Of a DNA stretch of 64,000 nucleotides, positions 2,898 to 42,871 are shown piece by piece. The position numbers were made by a program, and so were the translations under genes. Numbering within the stretch: the first letter of the stretch is position 1; every line of letters begins with the position of its first letter. Source of the DNA: Patescibacteria group bacterium (GTDB taxonomy: Bacteria; Patescibacteriota; Minisyncoccia; 2-02-FULL-40-12; IGHO2-01-FULL-4-A); the NCBI GenBank assembly GCA_038064915.1, contig JBBTSB010000010.1, positions 19,809-83,808 of the forward strand, read 5' to 3'. A model generated the notes under the pieces. That model was not told the origin of the DNA. It made no database searches and saw only the letters and a program-made list of their open reading frames with translations.

Positions 2898-4534
2898 ATT
2901 GCAAAAAAGACTTTACGATCGAACCCGATGACACGGCGTTCTATGAGTTGATGCAGGTGCCACCGCCGACGTTTTGTCCAGACTGCCGTCTTCAGCGCCG
3001 GTTGGCATTTCGGAATGACCGGTCTTTGTATAAAATCAAATGCGCTTTGTGCCGCCAAGATACGTTTTCTACAGCTCCACAAGGAGAACCTGACACCATC
3101 TACTGTCTTGAGTGTTGGAGTTCGGATTCTTGGGATGGCACGACCTATGGGCGGGAGTATGATTTTTCAAGACCGTTTTTTGAACAAATGAAGGAATTAT
3201 TTCACACCGTTCCTACACGCGCCCGTTTTGCGCTTCCCGGTACGCTCACGAACTCTGACTATACCAACCTGGTGAGTTATCTCAAAAACTGCTACCTCAT
3301 CTACAACTCTGACTACAACGAATACTGTATGTACGGCAGTGAGATAGAATCAAGCAAGGATTGCATCGACTGCACGATGGTGGACACGTGCGAGTCCTGC
3401 TATGGTTGTGTAAATTGCCAGAAATGTTATCGGGCATTTTTTTCGGTTGATTGTGAGGCATCGAGTGATATTTGGTTTTCAAAAAATCTTTCCGGCTGCC
3501 AAAGCTGTTTCGGCTGTATGAATTTACGCAACAAAAACTACTATATCTTCAACGAGCCCCATACAAAAGAAGACTATGCAAAAAAAGTCGAAGAATTAAA
3601 AAAGGATTTTAATCTCGAAAAGGCAAAGGAGTTTTGGCTCAAATATCCCGTCAAATACATTCACGGCCGGCAAAACACGAATGTTTCCGGCGACTATATC
3701 AATAATTCCAAGGATGTTCGCAACACCTACATTGCGAAAGAAGCTCAAAATATCAAGTACGGAATGTGGGTTTTGGTGCCGCCGGCCAAAGACTGCTGGG
3801 ACTATACGGAGTGGGGAGATGGCGCGGAAAAAATTTACGAAGGCGTGACCGTCGGGAGCCATGCGAGTAATGTCATGTTCAGTCAGATGGTCATGATATC
3901 GTCATCTCATGTACAATACAGCTTGAATTCCATTAGCGTGAAAGACTGTTTTGGTTGTGTTGGCTTGAAAAGCAAACAGTACTGCATCCTCAACAAGCAA
4001 TACGACAAAGAGTCCTTCGACAAGCTCAGGACACGCATCATTGCGCAAATGCGCAATGATGGTGAATACGGGGAGTTTTTCCCCATCACTATGAGTCCGT
4101 TTCCGTACAACGAAACCAATGCGCAAGAATACTTTCCTCTCACCAAAGAACAGGCGCTCGCAAAAGGGTATCGATGGAAGGATCTCGAGGAAAAAGCCTA
4201 CGTGCCCACGAAGAAATGGAATGAGGCATACGGGCTGGACGATATTGTCCTCTGTAGAGCGTGGGAGGAAGATAGCAAGAAGGCCCAGGAACATAAATGC
4301 ACGAAGGCATTTAAGATGACGAAACAGGAGCTCGAGTTTTATGAACGTTTTGGAATTGCATTGCCACAGTACTGTCCCAATAGCCGGTACTTCGAGCGCA
4401 GTAAATTCCGTAATCCTCTGAAGCTCTGGCATCGCAATTGCGCAAAATGCAACAAAGACATCGAAACTTCGTATTCTCCCGATCGGCCGGAGACTGTGTA
4501 TTGCGAATCTTGCTATCAGCAAGAAGTGATATAA
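2873..4534 (+). CDS. Cys-rich repeat protein, paralog B (553 aa), homologous to 1212..2897
   Basis: The same motif order is conserved with paralog A; the start overlaps paralog A by 25 nt. Confidence 0.7.
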   Translation: MLPTRSCINCKKDFTIEPDDTAFYELMQVPPPTFCPDCRLQRRLAFRNDRSLYKIKCALCRQDTFSTAPQGEPDTIYCLECWSSDSWDGTTYGREYDFSRPFFEQMKELFHTVPTRARFALPGTLTNSDYTNLVSYLKNCYLIYNSDYNEYCMYGSEIESSKDCIDCTMVDTCESCYGCVNCQKCYRAFFSVDCEASSDIWFSKNLSGCQSCFGCMNLRNKNYYIFNEPHTKEDYAKKVEELKKDFNLEKAKEFWLKYPVKYIHGRQNTNVSGDYINNSKDVRNTYIAKEAQNIKYGMWVLVPPAKDCWDYTEWGDGAEKIYEGVTVGSHASNVMFSQMVMISSSHVQYSLNSISVKDCFGCVGLKSKQYCILNKQYDKESFDKLRTRIIAQMRNDGEYGEFFPITMSPFPYNETNAQEYFPLTKEQALAKGYRWKDLEEKAYVPTKKWNEAYGLDDIVLCRAWEEDSKKAQEHKCTKAFKMTKQELEFYERFGIALPQYCPNSRYFERSKFRNPLKLWHRNCAKCNKDIETSYSPDRPETVYCESCYQQEVI

Positions 4535-5472: not shown

Positions 5473-6417
5473 CTAGTTGAAGTAGGAGAGGGCGTCTGCG
5501 AAGTTCATGCGATTCTCGCCCTTTCCGAAGTTGTCGAGGCAGCCGGCCTTTGCGAGCTCGCTTCCCCCGCCGCCGGTATTGGCGACGAAGACGGCCTTGC
5601 AGCCCCGCGCCTTGATGACCAGCACGAGATCAGAACCGTTGATGCCGCGCAGACCCTGGTCCATTAGGATGATGTCGGGGCTCATAGCCATGATGGCGTC
5701 TGCGACCCGTGCCAGTTCTGCATCCTTGGCTTCGCCTTCCAGTCCTGGGTACGCATGTTCCGTGTACTGGTGGAAGAACTGGAAATTGATGTTCGGAATT
5801 CCTACCAGCGCGAGGGCGGAACGCAGCATCTCCCGCAGGTCGTCATCGACGATGAGGACGCTGAGCTCACGAGCCAGCTCCTTGGAGGAGATGGGCTTCT
5901 TGAGCTCGAGTTCCGCGTACTTGGGACGTATGGGATCCAGCCCCAAGCCGGTGAGCTTATCGTTGAGCACTGCGATGATCTGCGGCCTCTCGATGCGATC
6001 GAACGCTCCCCTGTCGGCGAGGAGGACGAAGGTATTCGCGATGGTGAGAATCTCCTGCGCCTCCTTCTCGTCCCTGCCGTCAAGAGCATCCAAGAGCTCG
6101 GAACGAAGCTCGGCGGCGAGTGTACGTTCCCGTTCGCGCTGCTTCTCGTCGTATATGCGCGGCAGATTTCTCTGCCAGAGCGTGGGTTCGAGCGGCGGCA
6201 CCGGAACGTCGCTTTTGGCGAGCACCGTGCAAAACATGGTGAACGCCTTCTCCCGGGTGTCGCCGTGGTGCTGCTCCTTGAGCAGCTTGCCCTCGCCGTC
6301 CACGATCCGGAAGAGGTCGTGGTCCAGAAAATAAGCCAGGTGGGCCGCGTAGACGAACATCCCGGTGAGCTTGAGCTTCTCGATGAACTCCATCACGATC
6401 CGCGTGTACGTGGTCAT
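5473..6417 (-). CDS. response-regulator receiver (REC) domain protein with unknown N-terminal domain; GC-rich (~60%)
   Basis: C-terminal half carries the REC signature (LIVDDD…, …DIILMD…, conserved T/K). AAGGAGGG SD directly upstream of the ATG. GC content is far above its neighbours. Confidence 0.6.
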   Translation of the reverse strand: MTTYTRIVMEFIEKLKLTGMFVYAAHLAYFLDHDLFRIVDGEGKLLKEQHHGDTREKAFTMFCTVLAKSDVPVPPLEPTLWQRNLPRIYDEKQRERERTLAAELRSELLDALDGRDEKEAQEILTIANTFVLLADRGAFDRIERPQIIAVLNDKLTGLGLDPIRPKYAELELKKPISSKELARELSVLIVDDDLREMLRSALALVGIPNINFQFFHQYTEHAYPGLEGEAKDAELARVADAIMAMSPDIILMDQGLRGINGSDLVLVIKARGCKAVFVANTGGGGSELAKAGCLDNFGKGENRMNFADALSYFN

Positions 6418-24026: not shown

Positions 24027-24296
24027 ATGTCACAACCTCTTACAAAAGAAGATCTCAAAGAAGCCATAGCCGGATTAGCCACGAAAAAAGATCTCGAAAG
24101 TCTTAAAGATGAGTTAAAGCTCCATATGAATGCTCGTCTAGAAGACGTAGCCACTAAAGATGATCTTCTGGCTCTCGAAACAAAATTTATCAAAGATGTT
24201 GACGCGGTAGTTGGTGTCCAGGTAAAAGATACAAAAGATTTCAAAGGTCGCGTCGAGCGACTTGAGGGCGTCGTCTTTCCAAGAAAGCACGCCTAG
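24027..24296 (+). CDS. small coiled-coil hypothetical protein
   Basis: ORF 24000..24296; ATG 24027 sits just downstream of the predicted promoter. Confidence 0.4.
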   Translation: MSQPLTKEDLKEAIAGLATKKDLESLKDELKLHMNARLEDVATKDDLLALETKFIKDVDAVVGVQVKDTKDFKGRVERLEGVVFPRKHA

Positions 24297-24315: not shown

Positions 24316-24344
24316 TTGACGTAACTATAATTTTCATATATAAT
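24316..24344 (+). promoter_or_regulatory. consensus sigma70 promoter TTGACG-17nt-TATAAT upstream of the DGR target gene
   Basis: TTGACG 24316-24321, TATAAT 24339-24344. Confidence 0.5.
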
Positions 24345-24414
24345 ATAAATAGTTGTGCCTGCTAAACCGACGCAACGAAGCGTTGTTTTGGCAAGCTTAA
24401 GAAAGGAGTTCGGC

Positions 24415-25236
24415 ATGAGCCGGCTCACCGAGGGCATTGATGGCCGCATGATTGAGGCAGCCAAAACGCTTTCCGCACAGGGCGGAACCCTGGAAGACCT
24501 CGAGGTGCTCAAGAACCCCGAGGCCAATCCCCGTGCTGTCACTGTGGCACGGGCCGTCTTGCGTGAGCTCCGTGGAGAGGTGCTCGCGCCCATTCCGCTC
24601 TCGCCGCCGCAGATCGTCCCGGGCGCCAAGAACTTCATAAACTTCGACCTCTCGGCTTTCATGGTGAGCTGGACGAAGTTCTACGGGCGGATTTTCCAGA
24701 TCACGCTCGATCCGGCTTCCGTGCTGTTGCCGCCCCTTGAGCTCGCGCTCGGGAGCGGCCTCATCCGTCATCCCGACGTCACTATCGAGAAGGTGCTCTC
24801 GGCGTGGAAGAAGAACACGCCCAAGGAGCTCCTCTACCGCTACACGGAGAGCGATCTGGACGCTGCGATTCAAAAGGAGAAGGAGTCGTGGCGCCCGAGC
24901 GGTACCTACGTCGCCTGGGCGTATCCGGCGATCGAGGCTACGGACCAGGCGCCCGAGCTCGCCGAGAAGTCCTACGAGGACATCCAGGCAATGCCCGGGG
25001 TCTGGGTCATGAACTATCCCGAGCTGCCGCTCTACGCGCTCTGGCACTACGTGGAGACCGGAGTGCCGCTAGATCAGAAGACCGTCTCGCTCTCGGACTC
25101 ACTCGATGCGGCTGGCCGCGCGCTCGGCGGCAGCTGGCACGGCGACGGGTTCTGCGTCCACTGGTGCCACCGGCGCGGCTCGCACCCGAGCATCCGCGCT
25201 CGCAGGATCGTTCTCCCGCAGCCGAAGGCTGCGTAA
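24415..25236 (+). CDS. DGR target protein (273 aa), GC-rich, with the variable region in its C-terminal ~35 residues (…GGSWHGDGFCVHWCHRRGSHPSIRARR…), C-type-lectin/FGE-like VR-fold expected
   Basis: AAGGAG SD 7 nt upstream of ATG 24415. The 3' 106 nt equal the TR except at TR-adenine positions. Confidence 0.75.
   Translation: MSRLTEGIDGRMIEAAKTLSAQGGTLEDLEVLKNPEANPRAVTVARAVLRELRGEVLAPIPLSPPQIVPGAKNFINFDLSAFMVSWTKFYGRIFQITLDPASVLLPPLELALGSGLIRHPDVTIEKVLSAWKKNTPKELLYRYTESDLDAAIQKEKESWRPSGTYVAWAYPAIEATDQAPELAEKSYEDIQAMPGVWVMNYPELPLYALWHYVETGVPLDQKTVSLSDSLDAAGRALGGSWHGDGFCVHWCHRRGSHPSIRARRIVLPQPKAA
25111..25216 (+). repeat. DGR variable region (VR)
   Basis: 106-nt alignment to 25495..25600 with 22 mismatches, every one at a template adenine; the identical 3' block CATCCGCGCTCGCAGG is IMH-like. 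Confidence 0.8.
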
Positions 25237-25241
25237 CGCTT
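25225..25241 (+). other. hairpin CGCAGCC-GAA-GGCTGCG immediately 3' of the VR (DGR target-recognition stem-loop analog)
   Basis: perfect 7-bp stem with 3-nt loop, 9 nt after the VR end. Confidence 0.5.
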
Positions 25242-25265
25242 CTCGCTCTTCTCTCGTTCACTCGG

Positions 25266-25310
25266 ACTCCGGCAGCTTGCTGCTGGAGTCCGATTTCTTT
25301 TTTGGTATAC
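25266..25310 (+). terminator. Rho-independent terminator of target gene (CGGACTCC…GGAGTCCG + TTTCTTTTTT)
   Basis: 8-bp stem plus T-run. Confidence 0.6.
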
Positions 25311-25494
25311 TTACCCCGGGCTCATACAATCGGTCTTGTTCGCCGTTTGGCGAGACGGATAGCGATTTGCCCTATCAAAGGAGAACTACGTGCCCTTTTT
25401 TGGAGAAGAAGAGCTTCCTAAAAAATCTACTGCAATGGCAGCATACTCATAATTCTTTTTGAATGATGAGCGGCAAGGATGAGATGGGGCACTT

Positions 25495-25600
25495 ACTCGA
25501 TGCGGATGGCAACGCGCTCAACAGCAACTGGAACGACGACAAGTTCTACGTCAACTGGTACAACCAGCGCAACTCGAACCCGAACATCCGCGCTCGCAGG
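25495..25600 (+). repeat. DGR template region (TR), Asn-codon (AAC) rich
   Basis: See VR. It is followed at 25606..25645 by the hairpin CAACAGGCTCCT-TCAT-AGGAGTCTGTTG plus T7. Confidence 0.8.
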
Positions 25601-25620
25601 TAGACTCCCAACAGGCTCCT

Positions 25621-25962
25621 TCATAGGAGTCTGTTGTTTTTTTGGAATGATCCGATCCAGCCATTTGTTTCTTTTGAGATTTCTTGAAGTTCTTCTTCAA
25701 ATGCTTGATATAGACTTAGTCCGATAATATCCAGTTCTTGCATGAGCCGTACCATGCGTTTTAGTATTTCTATATTGGTGCGTAGGTCTTTCAGTGTAGG
25801 GACCTTTTCAATACCAGTTTGAAATCGTGCCTTGATCGCAAGTGCAATTGCATCCAATATAAGCGCATCAAGTTTTGAATAAATTCCGTGCCGATCCTGC
25901 TTTGATATTTTCGTGCGGAGGCGATAAAATTTCTTGTAAAACTCAAACAAATGATAAATCAA
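25621..25962 (-). CDS. avd: accessory variability determinant (Avd)-like four-helix-bundle protein, opposite strand to TR/RT
   Basis: 113 aa, basic. The C-terminal …LQEISKETNGWIGSF and central …RHGIYSKLDALILDAIA… segments resemble the Avd / 23S-IVS four-helix-bundle family. TTG start. Confidence 0.55.
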   Translation of the reverse strand: MIYHLFEFYKKFYRLRTKISKQDRHGIYSKLDALILDAIALAIKARFQTGIEKVPTLKDLRTNIEILKRMVRLMQELDIIGLSLYQAFEEELQEISKETNGWIGSFQKNNRLL

Positions 25963-25963
25963 G

Positions 25964-26914
25964 GTGACAGGTCGTTGGGGGGGGGGTCGCTATAGGAGTA
26001 TTCATGATTTGGCAAATTTATTTCTCGCCTGGCGGGAATTCCGGCGCGGCAAGCGACAGAAACCGGATGTTCAAGCATTTGAGTTTGATCTGGAGGATAA
26101 CCTATTTGAGCTTCACGAGCAACTCGTATCAAAAACATATTCGCACCAGCCGTACGAATCATTTTTTGTAACAGATCCAAAGCTTCGACATATCCATAAG
26201 GCCACCGTGCGAGATCGCGTCTTGCACCAGGCGGTGTTCCATGTGCTCTATCCGATCTTTGATCATACATTTATCTACGACTCCTATTCCTGTCGCATTG
26301 GCAAAGGGACTCACATTGCCGTTAATCGTCTCAAAGAATTTTGCCGCAAAGCTAGTTGCAACAATTCACGAAACATCTTCGCTCTCAAATGCGATATCCG
26401 CAAGTTCTTCGATTCGGTAGATCATGAAATTTTGATTGATTTGATAAAGCAGAGCGTTGTTGATCCCGATGTGCTTTGGCTCATAAAATTGATTCTCGAT
26501 AGTTTTCCCAAGGGCCTACCTTTGGGCAACGTCACGAGTCAATTATTTGCAAATATCTATTTGAATGAGCTTGATCAGTTTGCTAAGCATACGCTCAAGG
26601 CAAAGTATTACCTGCGCTACTGCGATGATTTTGTGTTACTCAACCCAGATCAGTCGACCCTTCTAGTAATTCGCAATTTTTTAGAGAATAACCTCAAACT
26701 GCAGCTTCATCCCAACAAAATCATCCTTCGTACCTACCGCCAGGGGATTGATTTTCTCGGCTACGTCGTGCGGCCGTACTGTCGAACCTTGCGGACGAAG
26801 ACAAAGAAGCGAATTTTTAAGAATATTTCAGAGAAAAATCTCGCATCGTACCTTGGTGTTCTCGATCATTGCGACGGATATGCCATTCGCCAAAAGCTCT
26901 TTGATTTGGTATGA
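25964..26914 (+). CDS. DGR reverse transcriptase
   Basis: RT motifs including LPLGNVTSQLFANIYL (DGR-type IGxxxSQ) and YCDDFVLL (YxDD). N-terminus alignable to Bordetella Brt. GTG start; G10 tract at 25977-25986. Confidence 0.85.
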   Translation: MTGRWGGGRYRSIHDLANLFLAWREFRRGKRQKPDVQAFEFDLEDNLFELHEQLVSKTYSHQPYESFFVTDPKLRHIHKATVRDRVLHQAVFHVLYPIFDHTFIYDSYSCRIGKGTHIAVNRLKEFCRKASCNNSRNIFALKCDIRKFFDSVDHEILIDLIKQSVVDPDVLWLIKLILDSFPKGLPLGNVTSQLFANIYLNELDQFAKHTLKAKYYLRYCDDFVLLNPDQSTLLVIRNFLENNLKLQLHPNKIILRTYRQGIDFLGYVVRPYCRTLRTKTKKRIFKNISEKNLASYLGVLDHCDGYAIRQKLFDLV

Positions 26915-34314: not shown

Positions 34315-34319
34315 TGAAG

Positions 34320-34727
34320 CTTGGTATATCTGTAAGCCGAATTCTGTATTTGTGTGATCATTCATCTTGCCCGGCTGTTGCCAGACGGATCCTTGCGGCA
34401 CCCCCGCACAAATGCGTTAGCTTTTGGCGGGTACGGCCTTGCACCAGGCAGGGTTTAGCGCACTCCCATGTCGCCATGGGGTGATTCCGTTCGGAACCTT
34501 TTCACCCGCGGTCAGCCGTCTGGCTGACTCGGAATGGTCTCTGTGCCACTCACCGCTACGCGCTCGCGCTCTAGCGGGACCCCGCAGTTATGCGGTGGTT
34601 TCCCTAAGTTTTCACTCGGTGGTCGTTAGCCACTGCCTATACCAAGGTTTAACCTTGGTAGTGTTCGGACTTTCCTCGCTCCCCCGACAGAATCGTCGGG
34701 GCCCGCGCGATCACCCGATATACCAAG
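34320..34727 (-). ncRNA. rnpB: RNase P RNA, bacterial type A
   Basis: Read on the minus strand. P1 GGTATATC…GATATACC; P3 CCCCGAC-GATTCT-GTCGGGG; CR-I GAGCGAGGAAAGTCCGAAC; CR-V ACAGAATTCGGCTTACA. GC-rich with no credible ORF. Confidence 0.8.
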
Positions 34728-42799: not shown

Positions 42800-42871
42800 G
42801 CGGGTGTGGTTCAATGGTAGAACACGACCTTCCCAAGGTTGAGACGTGGGTCCGATTCCCATCACCCGCTC
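42800..42871 (+). tRNA. tRNA-Gly (anticodon CCC)
   Basis: Cloverleaf GCGGGTG acceptor / CACCCGC; D-arm GTTC..GAAC; anticodon stem CGACC/GGTTG with loop TTCCCAA; T-arm GTGGG-TCCGATT-CCCAT; no encoded CCA. Confidence 0.8.

Follow-up and report, generated by a model that had tools for sequence, protein, structure and literature searches.

The 64,000-nt stretch of DNA considered here, hereafter the window, comes from a Patescibacteria group bacterium (contig JBBTSB010000010.1, positions 19,809 to 83,808 of the forward strand), and its positions 24316-26914 raise the question of what kind of element lies there, whether it still operates and how it would be controlled and directed to its target. 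The region is, with high confidence, a complete chromosomal diversity-generating retroelement (DGR) of a lineage restricted to the Patescibacteria (candidate phyla radiation, CPR), belonging to reverse transcriptase (RT) clade 2 and to the "B3" architecture as far as the text of the published classifications goes. All the defining DGR components that are testable from sequence appear to be present and intact. A complete DGR had been proposed before from the letters of the DNA alone (the sequence-only reading), and its main parts, namely the adenine-only divergence of two repeats, the RT, the accessory protein Avd and an open reading frame (ORF) bearing a variable region, were all confirmed from sequence or model. 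The cassette is one more curated CPR DGR with corrected coordinates, a target family and a fold assignment, and features found across its clade bear on two questions, the regulation of DGR activity and the recognition of the target.

Divergence of the variable and template repeats

The element is made up of the following features:

24415..25236, + strand: target (variable protein) gene, 273 aa from an ATG following AAGGAG (NCBI call: TTG 24388, 282 aa); GC 64.5%
25101..25206, + strand: variable region (VR), 106 nt, from the ungapped alignment to the template repeat
25191..25206, + strand: GC-rich block CATCCGCGCTCGCAGG, the same in both repeats by direct reading, resembling the core of an initiation of mutagenic homing (IMH) site
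25495..25600, + strand: template repeat (TR), with 31 adenines and, in the VR frame, 10 AAC codons, from the ungapped alignment to the VR
25621..25962, - strand: avd (accessory variability determinant), 113 aa, TTG start, divergent from the RT gene
25964..26914, + strand: DGR reverse transcriptase ORF, 316 aa from GTG 25964 when the G tract near its start counts ten residues (G10); RVT_1 7.5e-19

The 3' end of the target gene and an intergenic copy form a direct repeat of 106-110 nt without gaps, at an offset of 394 nt. Between VR and TR 20 differences were counted, and their tabulation by template base places every one of them (20/20) on an adenine of the TR, with 14 A>G changes, 6 A>C changes and no A>T, which corresponds to a hypergeometric P of 4.4e-14 for 31 adenines among 106 TR positions. 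Thirty of these 31 adenines stand at codon position 1 or 2 of the target frame, and 16 codons are recoded in the VR. The adenine-only divergence is a record of past mutagenic homing. There is no second VR, as no other sequence of the 64-kb window fits the TR pattern.

The sequence-only reading had located the TR correctly, had recognised the shared 3' block and had rightly restricted the differences to template adenines. Its VR (25111..25216) lies 10 nt off and, aligned as it was written, gives 79 mismatches in 106 positions; its count of 22 differences comes down to 20. Nor is the VR the last 106 nt of the gene, since another 30 nt of ORF separate its end from the stop codon. In the list of codons thought to replace AAC, TAC and TGC are mistaken; no A>T change occurs, VR TGC derives from TR TAC and VR CGG from TR CAG. 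By analogy with Bordetella, the CATCCGCGCTCGCAGG block would act as the IMH.

Reverse transcriptase, Avd and related loci

The RT carries LGNVTSQ, a motif of the (I/L)GxxxSQ form that DGR RTs have where other RTs have QG, as well as YCDD, and is of the DGR type, as had been recognised from the letters. Against solved structures its best match is Bordetella bRT (8ub7; 3e-37, 131.9 bits), compared with 3e-20 and 75.9 bits for group II intron RT structures; LGNVTSQLFANIY of the RT aligns with IGSLTSQLFANVY of bRT and LGNVTSQ lies opposite IGSLTSQ (IGxxxSQ). The RT called by NCBI, 301 aa from TTG 26009, truncates the conserved N-terminal helix. More than 7,900 homologues were found, the named ones mostly from Patescibacteria and thousands of them at 52-75% identity, and the relatives on IMG/VR contigs are at most ~54% identical and mostly 35-44%, which fits a cellular lineage. 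For the neighbouring gene, the hidden Markov model (HMM) search that had been suggested gave 42 bits against PF22296 (bAvd), above the Pfam gathering threshold of 40. The Avd-like gene of 113 aa that had been seen between TR and RT is thereby retained, with the correction that it lies on the minus strand, which had gone unnoticed.

From a metagenome scan came 80 loci with RTs sharing 52-67% identity with that of the window, and together with other loci and the window region they form a clade set of 88 sources. An adenine-biased VR/TR pair is present in 52 of the 88 and avd was found in 70, in all 70 cases on the minus strand, abutting the RT gene and divergent from it, so that the order in the clade is target/VR (+), TR (+), hairpin, avd (-), RT (+). 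The target-family HMM matches an ORF in 50/88 sources, and about 15 loci bearing a VR/TR pair use another target. This layout is apparently the published "B3" architecture, in so far as the text of that paper describes it; 90% of CPR DGRs have this architecture and hardly any others do (Wu et al. 2018, PMC5758913). RT clade 2 is confined to Patescibacteria and has targets without recognisable domains (Roux et al. 2021, PMC8144416). The window cassette shares with the CPR DGRs of these two surveys the Patescibacteria host, the chromosomal rather than phage location, the TR upstream and avd beside the RT, small targets without signal peptide, transmembrane segment or Pfam domain, and an RT 52-75% identical. 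There is no difference in kind, and the window element, a further member, is typical of the known DGR type of groundwater Patescibacteria; that DGRs are known in CPR genomes had been stated correctly.

The target protein

No Pfam or NCBIfam family matches the target protein, and no sequence match to it exists among solved structures. The fold of its model matches C-type-lectin (CLec) and formylglycine-generating enzyme (FGE)-type proteins, including the DGR variable proteins TvpA, Mtd and TaqVP, in keeping with the fold that the sequence-only reading had thought compatible with the protein's tail; a single-sequence AlphaFold2 (AF2) model had a pLDDT of 36.9 and was of no use. On inspection the protein has no signal peptide, as had been said, and no hydrophobic segment.

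A word-indexed search of 5.8 billion proteins returned as sole match the target protein itself, from a metagenome-assembled genome labelled Patescibacteria group bacterium. An exhaustive HMMER search yielded a family of 108 cluster representatives of ~240-260 aa sharing the core YAIWVRDxVEADEELKNxSAN...TLCxGSRxxDGxVPxVxW...LRARxVVS. At E <= 0.01 no Pfam model, FGE-sulfatase (PF03781) and DUF1566 included, matches the window target or any of 85 family members, which differ in this from the CLec-fold variable proteins of the FGE-sulfatase superfamily (Mtd 1yu0, TvpA 2y3c, TaqVP 5vf4). The VR motif of the family, GS(R)xxDGxVPxVxW...VxW...LRARxVVS, is also unlike the canonical CLec1-3 logos. For many VR classes of CPR the fold is unknown (PMC5758913), and the VR of the window family may belong among the "unknown VR" classes that Wu et al. 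list. The target is single, without a paralogue in the 64-kb window.

The target gene is GC-rich (0.63-0.65, and 0.83 at third codon positions, GC3, vs ~0.5 in adjacent genes), its GC3 being the highest among the 53 window ORFs of at least 200 aa, and the excess reaches beyond the VR. With the VR excluded, target GC exceeds RT GC in 35/35 genes (34 related loci and the window; means 0.51 vs 0.35) and is at least as high as that of the remaining locus in each of the 31 cases with enough flank. Adenine-depleting mutagenesis was considered as the source of this composition and rejected because outside the VR adenine and thymine are equally depleted (0.191 and 0.181).

A homologue of the target, 48% identical, is present in a Saccharibacteria metagenome-assembled genome (L005, 1467-2264) beside yqeY, ftsA and ftsZ, one locus returned by a genome contig scan made with close target relatives, a broad target alignment being insufficiently conserved for scanning. 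Neither TR nor RT was found in the 8.3 kb examined there (~1.5 kb upstream and 6 kb downstream of the homologue), which is either an orphan or remote target or a non-diversified member of the family.

Flanking signals and the proposed homing cycle

Around the repeats and genes, the following signals were located:

24316..24344, + strand: promoter-like TTGACG-17 nt-TATAAT before the target gene, function presumed; consensus scan, 11/12
25217..25233, + strand: GC hairpin of 7 bp with GAA loop, 10 nt past the VR; DNA fold
25262..25303, + strand: intrinsic terminator of the target gene, 14-bp stem (25262-25293) and T-run; fold z = -6.0
25302..25330, + strand: promoter-like TTGGTA-17 nt-TACAAT, putatively for the TR RNA; consensus scan, 9/12
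25601..25608, + strand: TR 3' flank TAGACTCC, unlike the VR flank and presumably IMH*-like in role; pairs 4+4 bp with the leader motif described below
25609..25645, + strand: hairpin and T7, terminator of the TR RNA, at the convergent avd 3' end; fold z = -3.6
25902..25930, + strand: promoter-like TTGATA-17 nt-TAAAAT, putatively for the RT gene, within the avd coding sequence; consensus scan, 10/12

Both the GAA-loop hairpin after the VR and the hairpin with U-run after the TR had been seen in the sequence-only reading and are present. A comparable strict hairpin follows the VR in ~40% of related loci, and an inverted repeat 3' of the VR is present in only 34% of DGRs (PMC5758913). At the site of the TR terminator most related loci have a hairpin with an A-rich 5' arm and a T-rich 3' arm, and TATAAT or TACAAT boxes stand in related loci at the place equivalent to the TR RNA promoter.

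Following the Bordetella paradigm, the biochemical steps of homing would run as follows. An RNA of ~300 nt (~25337 to 25645), transcribed from its own promoter, would comprise a folded leader, the 106-nt TR and the terminator hairpin. The RT would copy the TR to cDNA with Avd, misincorporating opposite template adenines, and this cDNA would replace the VR (25101-25206) in the last quarter of the 273-aa target, whereby up to 20 codons of a C-type-lectin-like binding surface could be recoded, giving ~6e18 possible proteins by arithmetic from the TR codons. With the Bordetella BPP-1 DGR (mtd, avd, TR, brt) the cassette has in common the adenine-specific transfer from TR to VR, a bRT-like RT, Avd, a VR at the 3' end of a gene of C-type-lectin fold, a GC-rich 3' block shared by VR and TR and an inverted repeat after the VR. 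It differs from it by an inverted avd between TR and RT, by a TR with a terminator ~8 nt behind it, where BPP-1 has a 140-nt spacer (Sp) that runs into brt, and by a chromosomal location with a target that is no phage tail fibre.

Several points weigh against the DGR reading. The folding energy of the hairpin after the VR is ordinary for a stretch so rich in GC (z = -0.19), the promoter-like sites of the cassette are consensus matches only, and avd remains under the cut-off of the NCBIfam DGR Avd model (NF033474; 43.9 bits vs 80) and has no sequence match among solved structures.

As a separate observation, CCTT(G) motifs are enriched 5- to 11-fold within 80 nt past the VR or stop codon in related loci (e.g. 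L055, L012, L042, L017, L073), often as 3-5 copies with a spacing of 7-8 nt, and are not enriched after the TR. The window counterpart of this array is a degenerate CT-rich sequence, CGCTTCTCGCTCTTCTCTCG, at 25237-25261. Such motifs could be a target-side recognition element.

A conserved RNA fold upstream of the template repeat

By what means the cDNA reaches the VR and spares the TR is not yet fully understood (PMC12875486, PMC8867640), and little literature was found on how DGR mutators are kept in check. On both points the clade offers features from which we suggest, tentatively and as something that may well prove wrong, that the lineage carries two controls, an RT made phase-variable by slippage of a G9-12 or (GT)n repeat and a leader RNA acting as an "anti-IMH" guide. 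In the DGR literature compared, which did not include the CPR survey of Paul et al. 2017, no mention was found of the fold upstream of the TR, of its complementarity to the VR or of the poly-G tract, and none linking DGRs to homopolymers or phase variation; the tract and the complementarity between leader RNA and VR appear undescribed. The features of the leader in the window are:

25376..25495, + strand: structured TR-leader RNA domain, ending where the TR begins; RNAalifold, pair counts, covariance model
25380-25389, + strand: leader motif GGAGAACUAC, directly 5' of P1
25390-25401 with 25481-25492, + strand: closing helix P1, 12 bp, whose 3' arm reaches the TR start; RNAalifold
~25403-25419 and ~25430-25441, + strand: hairpins P2 and P3
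~25445-25470, + strand: hairpin P4, 9 bp; RNAalifold

The 165 nt upstream of the TR were aligned for 32 loci, in which a conserved domain is evident. In this alignment 94.9% of cells are paired, vs 40-54% with the 3' partners slid by 1-3 columns, and 163 cells are compensatory vs 20-41 with slid partners, values that none of 500 shuffles reached. In a trimmed alignment of 22 sequences P1, P2 and P4 are paired in 96.6%, 87.2% and 89.9% of cells respectively, P3 being misaligned. A covariance model built on the trimmed alignment (R1) gave 56 matches in 82 sources, one each and all on the RT strand, 34 of the loci lying outside the model seed; the matches stop just upstream of the TR wherever this is located. 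The 556-kb outgroup contained only two weak matches, both in loci with a minus-strand avd. In the window R1 has one match, 25376-25495, at 61.4 bits, the window sequence having been part of the seed.

No family of Rfam 15 matches the leader RNA, either at gathering scores or at E <= 10. Motifs near RT genes have been described by Weinberg et al. (RT-1 to RT-19, PMC5737381), and the leader RNA is a candidate for a new RNA family. The folded spacer of Bordetella is on the 3' side of the TR (PMC12875486), whereas the fold conserved in the window clade is on its 5' side.

Complementarity of the leader motif to the VR edge

Directly 5' of P1, the leader motif spans 8-14 nt with the consensus (A/G)GAAACUGC and is the reverse complement of the VR 3' edge (VR consensus GCAGTTTCC-TAA), which often comprises the last target codons and the stop. 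Its counterpart in the window and examples from related loci are:

25210..25216, + strand: GTTCTCC, just past the VR/TR homology, Watson-Crick complement of leader GGAGAAC (25380-25386)
L034: leader TTACGAAACTGC, VR flank GCAGTTTCGTAA
L045: leader GGGGAACTGC, VR flank GCAGTTCCCC
L016: leader AGTACTGCT, VR flank AGCAGTACT
L042: leader TAGAGCAC, VR flank GTGCTCTA
L055: leader ATTACTGC, VR flank GCAGTAAT
L013: leader AACGAAACTC, VR flank GAGTTTCGTT

Loci whose targets belong to other families also show this covariation of leader and VR flank. In 44 loci the mean length of the longest Watson-Crick run is 7.7 with the own VR flank, 5.6 with the own TR flank (Wilcoxon p = 9e-6) and 6.0 with the VR flanks of other loci, and no permutation out of 10,000 came as high as the own flanks; a comparison of 32 loci gave the same preference. 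The paired site spans the end of the VR/TR homology and often extends past it. The fit to the TR flank is poorer, with a consensus of 6 bp, one mismatch and 1 bp, and 4+4 bp in the window. The pattern suggests that the leader motif pairs with the VR 3' edge and helps an RNA-cDNA intermediate find the VR rather than the TR. The motif would first pair with the TR 3' flank for priming and then with the sense strand of the VR 3' edge. In this way the RNA-cDNA chimera would settle on the VR instead of the TR, its RNA being collinear with the cDNA as a primer is with its Okazaki fragment, and IMH would be told apart from IMH*. If true, this would be a sequence-level answer to the choice of the DGR target and to the one-way flow of information.

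The complementarity could also reflect pairing within the RNA instead of guiding to DNA, either as priming at the TR flank or with the VR end of a read-through target-TR transcript, and this we regard as a real though not a probable alternative. It draws on the ability of the leader to pair with the TR flank as well (mean 5.3-5.6 bp) and on the Bordetella system, where RNA adjacent to the TR folds, recruits bRT-Avd and primes cDNA within IMH* (PMC12875486). It has to contend with the better fit of the own VR flank, with a complementarity that often runs beyond the repeat homology and, in the window, with a strong terminator between VR and leader; moreover, TR-flank priming followed by VR-flank anchoring are mutually compatible. 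Against guiding of the intermediate to the VR edge stand the pairing in the window, only 7 bp long, and the relatives L001 and L008, whose leaders match the VR flank less well than the TR flank.

The closest parallel to VR-edge pairing is the exon-binding site to intron-binding site (EBS-IBS) pairing of group II introns, where likewise a short single-stranded RNA beside a folded domain complements the sense strand of the target at its boundary and covaries with it; a complementary segment that covaries with the target boundary, as is expected of RNA-guided recognition of this kind, is what the clade displays. The RTs of DGRs and of group II introns are themselves related (PMC5758913). The window system differs in having no ribozyme and a single segment of 7-12 nt, able to pair with the TR flank too, where group II introns have EBS1, EBS2 and delta, and its RNA-DNA pairing is a prediction.

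Poly-G run in the first codons of the RT gene

25951..25953, + strand: ATG matching the conserved RT start of the clade, leader peptide M-I-N-Q-G-D-R-S; in frame at G9/G12, out at G10
25977..25986, + strand: poly-G tract, G10, ~9 codons into the RT gene

The G10 tract is the sole run of at least eight G or C in the 64-kb window. At the equivalent place 45 distinct related loci have a run of G7-12, mostly 9-11; the 475 kb of relatives contain 69 runs of at least eight G or C, all of them G on the RT strand, with more than one in only four loci, and in a more distant set of 80 DGR loci (556 kb) L091, the closest, is the only one with such a run near its RT start. In L069 (~3975-3990) and L076 (~735-750) a (GT)6-7 repeat takes the place of poly-G at the avd/RT junction. 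Separately, it was noted that in these two loci a clean RT ATG start lies downstream of the repeat.

In 46/46 loci the RT frame has no stop between the G-run and the conserved ENLxxAW motif, and the other two frames soon meet one. The segment past the run looks coding, and the RT start codon should therefore be upstream of the run. This segment reads G-L-N-S-H-N-I-F-E-K-I and resembles the G-K-R-H-R-N-L-I-D-Q-I in the N-terminal part of bRT. Every locus has an ATG 23-59 nt before the run, in the frame that enters it, followed by a conserved leader peptide, M-(H/N/D)-(Q/N/K)-(R/G)-x-I-(K/E), and in-frame database homologues begin exactly at this ATG (e.g. MHQTGVNSVGGGLNSHNIFDEI), run-less relatives likewise. 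Relative to the RT body, the conserved ATG of the 45 loci has frame 0 in 5 cases, +1 in 25 and +2 in 15 (binomial vs one third, p = 0.0012). We infer that the G9-12 run is a slippage-prone gate that leaves the RT off in most cells or transcripts and that works by phase variation of the DNA, by slippage during transcription, or in both ways; located about nine codons into the gene, the repeat would leave the RT mostly out of frame and slippage would switch it on stochastically.

Three other assemblies of the strain match the window letter for letter over ~4.6 to 6.9 kb, except for the tract and two nearby bases in L090. The tract is G10 in the window and G11 in L088 and L090, and the contig of L089 ends inside the run after at least 11 G. 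Besides run length, the only substitutions of L090 vs the window over 6.9 kb are A25997G and A26000T (L090 4644 and 4647), 11 and 14 nt past the run, both at adenines in an AGGAG-like stretch; they may be low-coverage errors behind a homopolymer.

In none of the assemblies of the strain does the conserved ATG share the frame of the RT body; at G10, GTG 25964 is in frame, and at G11, with the frames read by eye, there is no canonical in-frame start upstream of the run. Against a slippage gate it can be said that the differences between assemblies could be homopolymer sequencing or assembly errors, L090 having ~6x coverage. In another explanation the run is a sequence-specific element (a Shine-Dalgarno (SD)-like site, a spacer of the avd/RT promoters or a Gly-Gly-Gly segment) and its length differences are sequencing errors. 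Such a role, which we consider rather unlikely, would be in line with the Gly-Gly retained in the protein of run-less relatives, with a possible pairing of GGGGG with the anti-SD sequence (our own inference), with five duplicate contig pairs that agree in run length within each pair, and with the two further differences beside the run in the low-coverage L090. It fits less well with the occurrence of all lengths from 9 to 12 and the rarity of an in-frame ATG (5/45, p = 0.001), with the retention of GGG GGG GGG codons in AT-rich loci whose RT genes have ~35% GC, and with the near uniqueness of the run in the window and in each related locus. The (GT)6-7 repeat substituting at the same place in two loci favours slippage over recognition of G as such, because the type of repeat changed and its position was kept.

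The poly-G contingency loci of meningococcal hmbR/hpuAB (PMC3786947) and of Campylobacter (PMC8355987) resemble the tract by a G9-12 run a few codons into the ORF, by lengths that differ between loci and between same-strain assemblies and by frames that are mostly off. They gate surface proteins, whereas the window tract, on sequence evidence, would gate a mutagenic RT; unlike them, it also lies upstream of a divergent avd and transcriptional slippage is equally possible. If true, the mutator itself would be phase-variable.

Two other readings of the tract and its ATG were examined. A prfB-like +1 ribosomal frameshift at the G-run was set aside, the stop codon being, in our own reading, outside the A site of the slippery codon. 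The conserved ATG as a mere mirror of an avd His codon was rejected as the whole explanation because many homologues start there in frame and because the same ATG is retained at -27 in two loci without a detected avd, L064 (G9, in frame) and L074 (G11, out of frame).

Present state of the element

A further alternative is that the DGR is now switched off or decaying, its parts being recognisable and no diversification taking place today. The VR is identical in the four consensus assemblies of the strain (window and three others), which gives no sign of current activity and is a point to be set against a working element; to it may be added the RT body out of frame with its conserved ATG at G10 and G11, without a canonical in-frame start at G11, and the avd of the syntenic L001, broken into two ORFs. 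Minority VR variants are, on the other hand, invisible in consensus assemblies, the RT (316 aa at G10) and avd (113 aa) ORFs have no internal stops, and the catalytic YCDD is intact. In the 45 loci, with their otherwise intact RTs and adenine-biased VR/TR pairs, out-of-frame tracts are moreover the rule, and a reversible gate therefore fits better than decay, which we judge unlikely. An origin by chance or ordinary duplication together with a group II intron, retron or defence RT is extremely improbable: the top NCBIfam model of the RT is indeed a group II intron RT/maturase, yet at 143 bits vs a cut-off of 300, and the idea is refuted by a bRT match far stronger than any to group II intron or retron RTs and by the adenine-only divergence (P = 4e-14), with Avd adjacent and with no intron RNA, maturase domain or Rfam match at the element.

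Near-identical contig pairs were compared for VR differences and showed nothing decisive. In one such pair of 9-kb contigs, L077 and L078, otherwise 99.93% identical, four clustered differences lie downstream of the RT (5730-5742); three of them are A/G, and a second, remote VR could be located there.

Contigs L006, L007, L089 and many short contigs found with target or RT queries end right after the target, in the VR/TR region or in the G-run, as expected if the repeats or their heterogeneity break assemblies.

Genomic context

On the + strand of the window rplB, rpsE, secY, adk and map precede the cassette, and a GT2 glycosyltransferase gene, a galT-like gene, tpiA and pgk follow it. No homologue of infA, rpsM or rpsK (alpha-operon) was found in the 64-kb window with E. 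coli queries. The sequence-only reading had put the cassette directly after map; map does lie upstream, and a coiled-coil ORF of 89 aa stands between them. It had also taken the position for a special one, which holds in part, as the site is shared with L001 (GCA_964365375.1; RT 70% identical), where the DGR lies between map and the same GT2-galT-tpiA genes. This common site indicates a location inherited within the lineage and no recent insertion. The target of L001 is only 24% identical to that of the window. GT2 follows the RT in several more loci, and map precedes the target in L074.

The intervening 89-aa ORF (24027-24296, + strand) is rich in K, E, D and L with KEDL/KDDL repeats, has only a weak LED_rpt match, is present in the three other strain assemblies and is absent from L001. 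In L001 avd is made up of two short ORFs (5610-5944, - strand; frameshift or stop), and its RT and VR/TR pair look intact.

Elsewhere in the window, a second GC-rich gene (5473-6417, - strand) has a GC of ~0.60 vs ~0.42 in its flanks and a GC3 of 0.79; its product of 314 aa has no Pfam match, has by eye a C-terminus like a CheY-type receiver and is unrelated to the DGR target family. The only Rfam or ARAGORN matches in the window are an RNase P RNA of class A (34317-34726, - strand) and a tRNA-Gly(CCC) (42800-42871, + strand).

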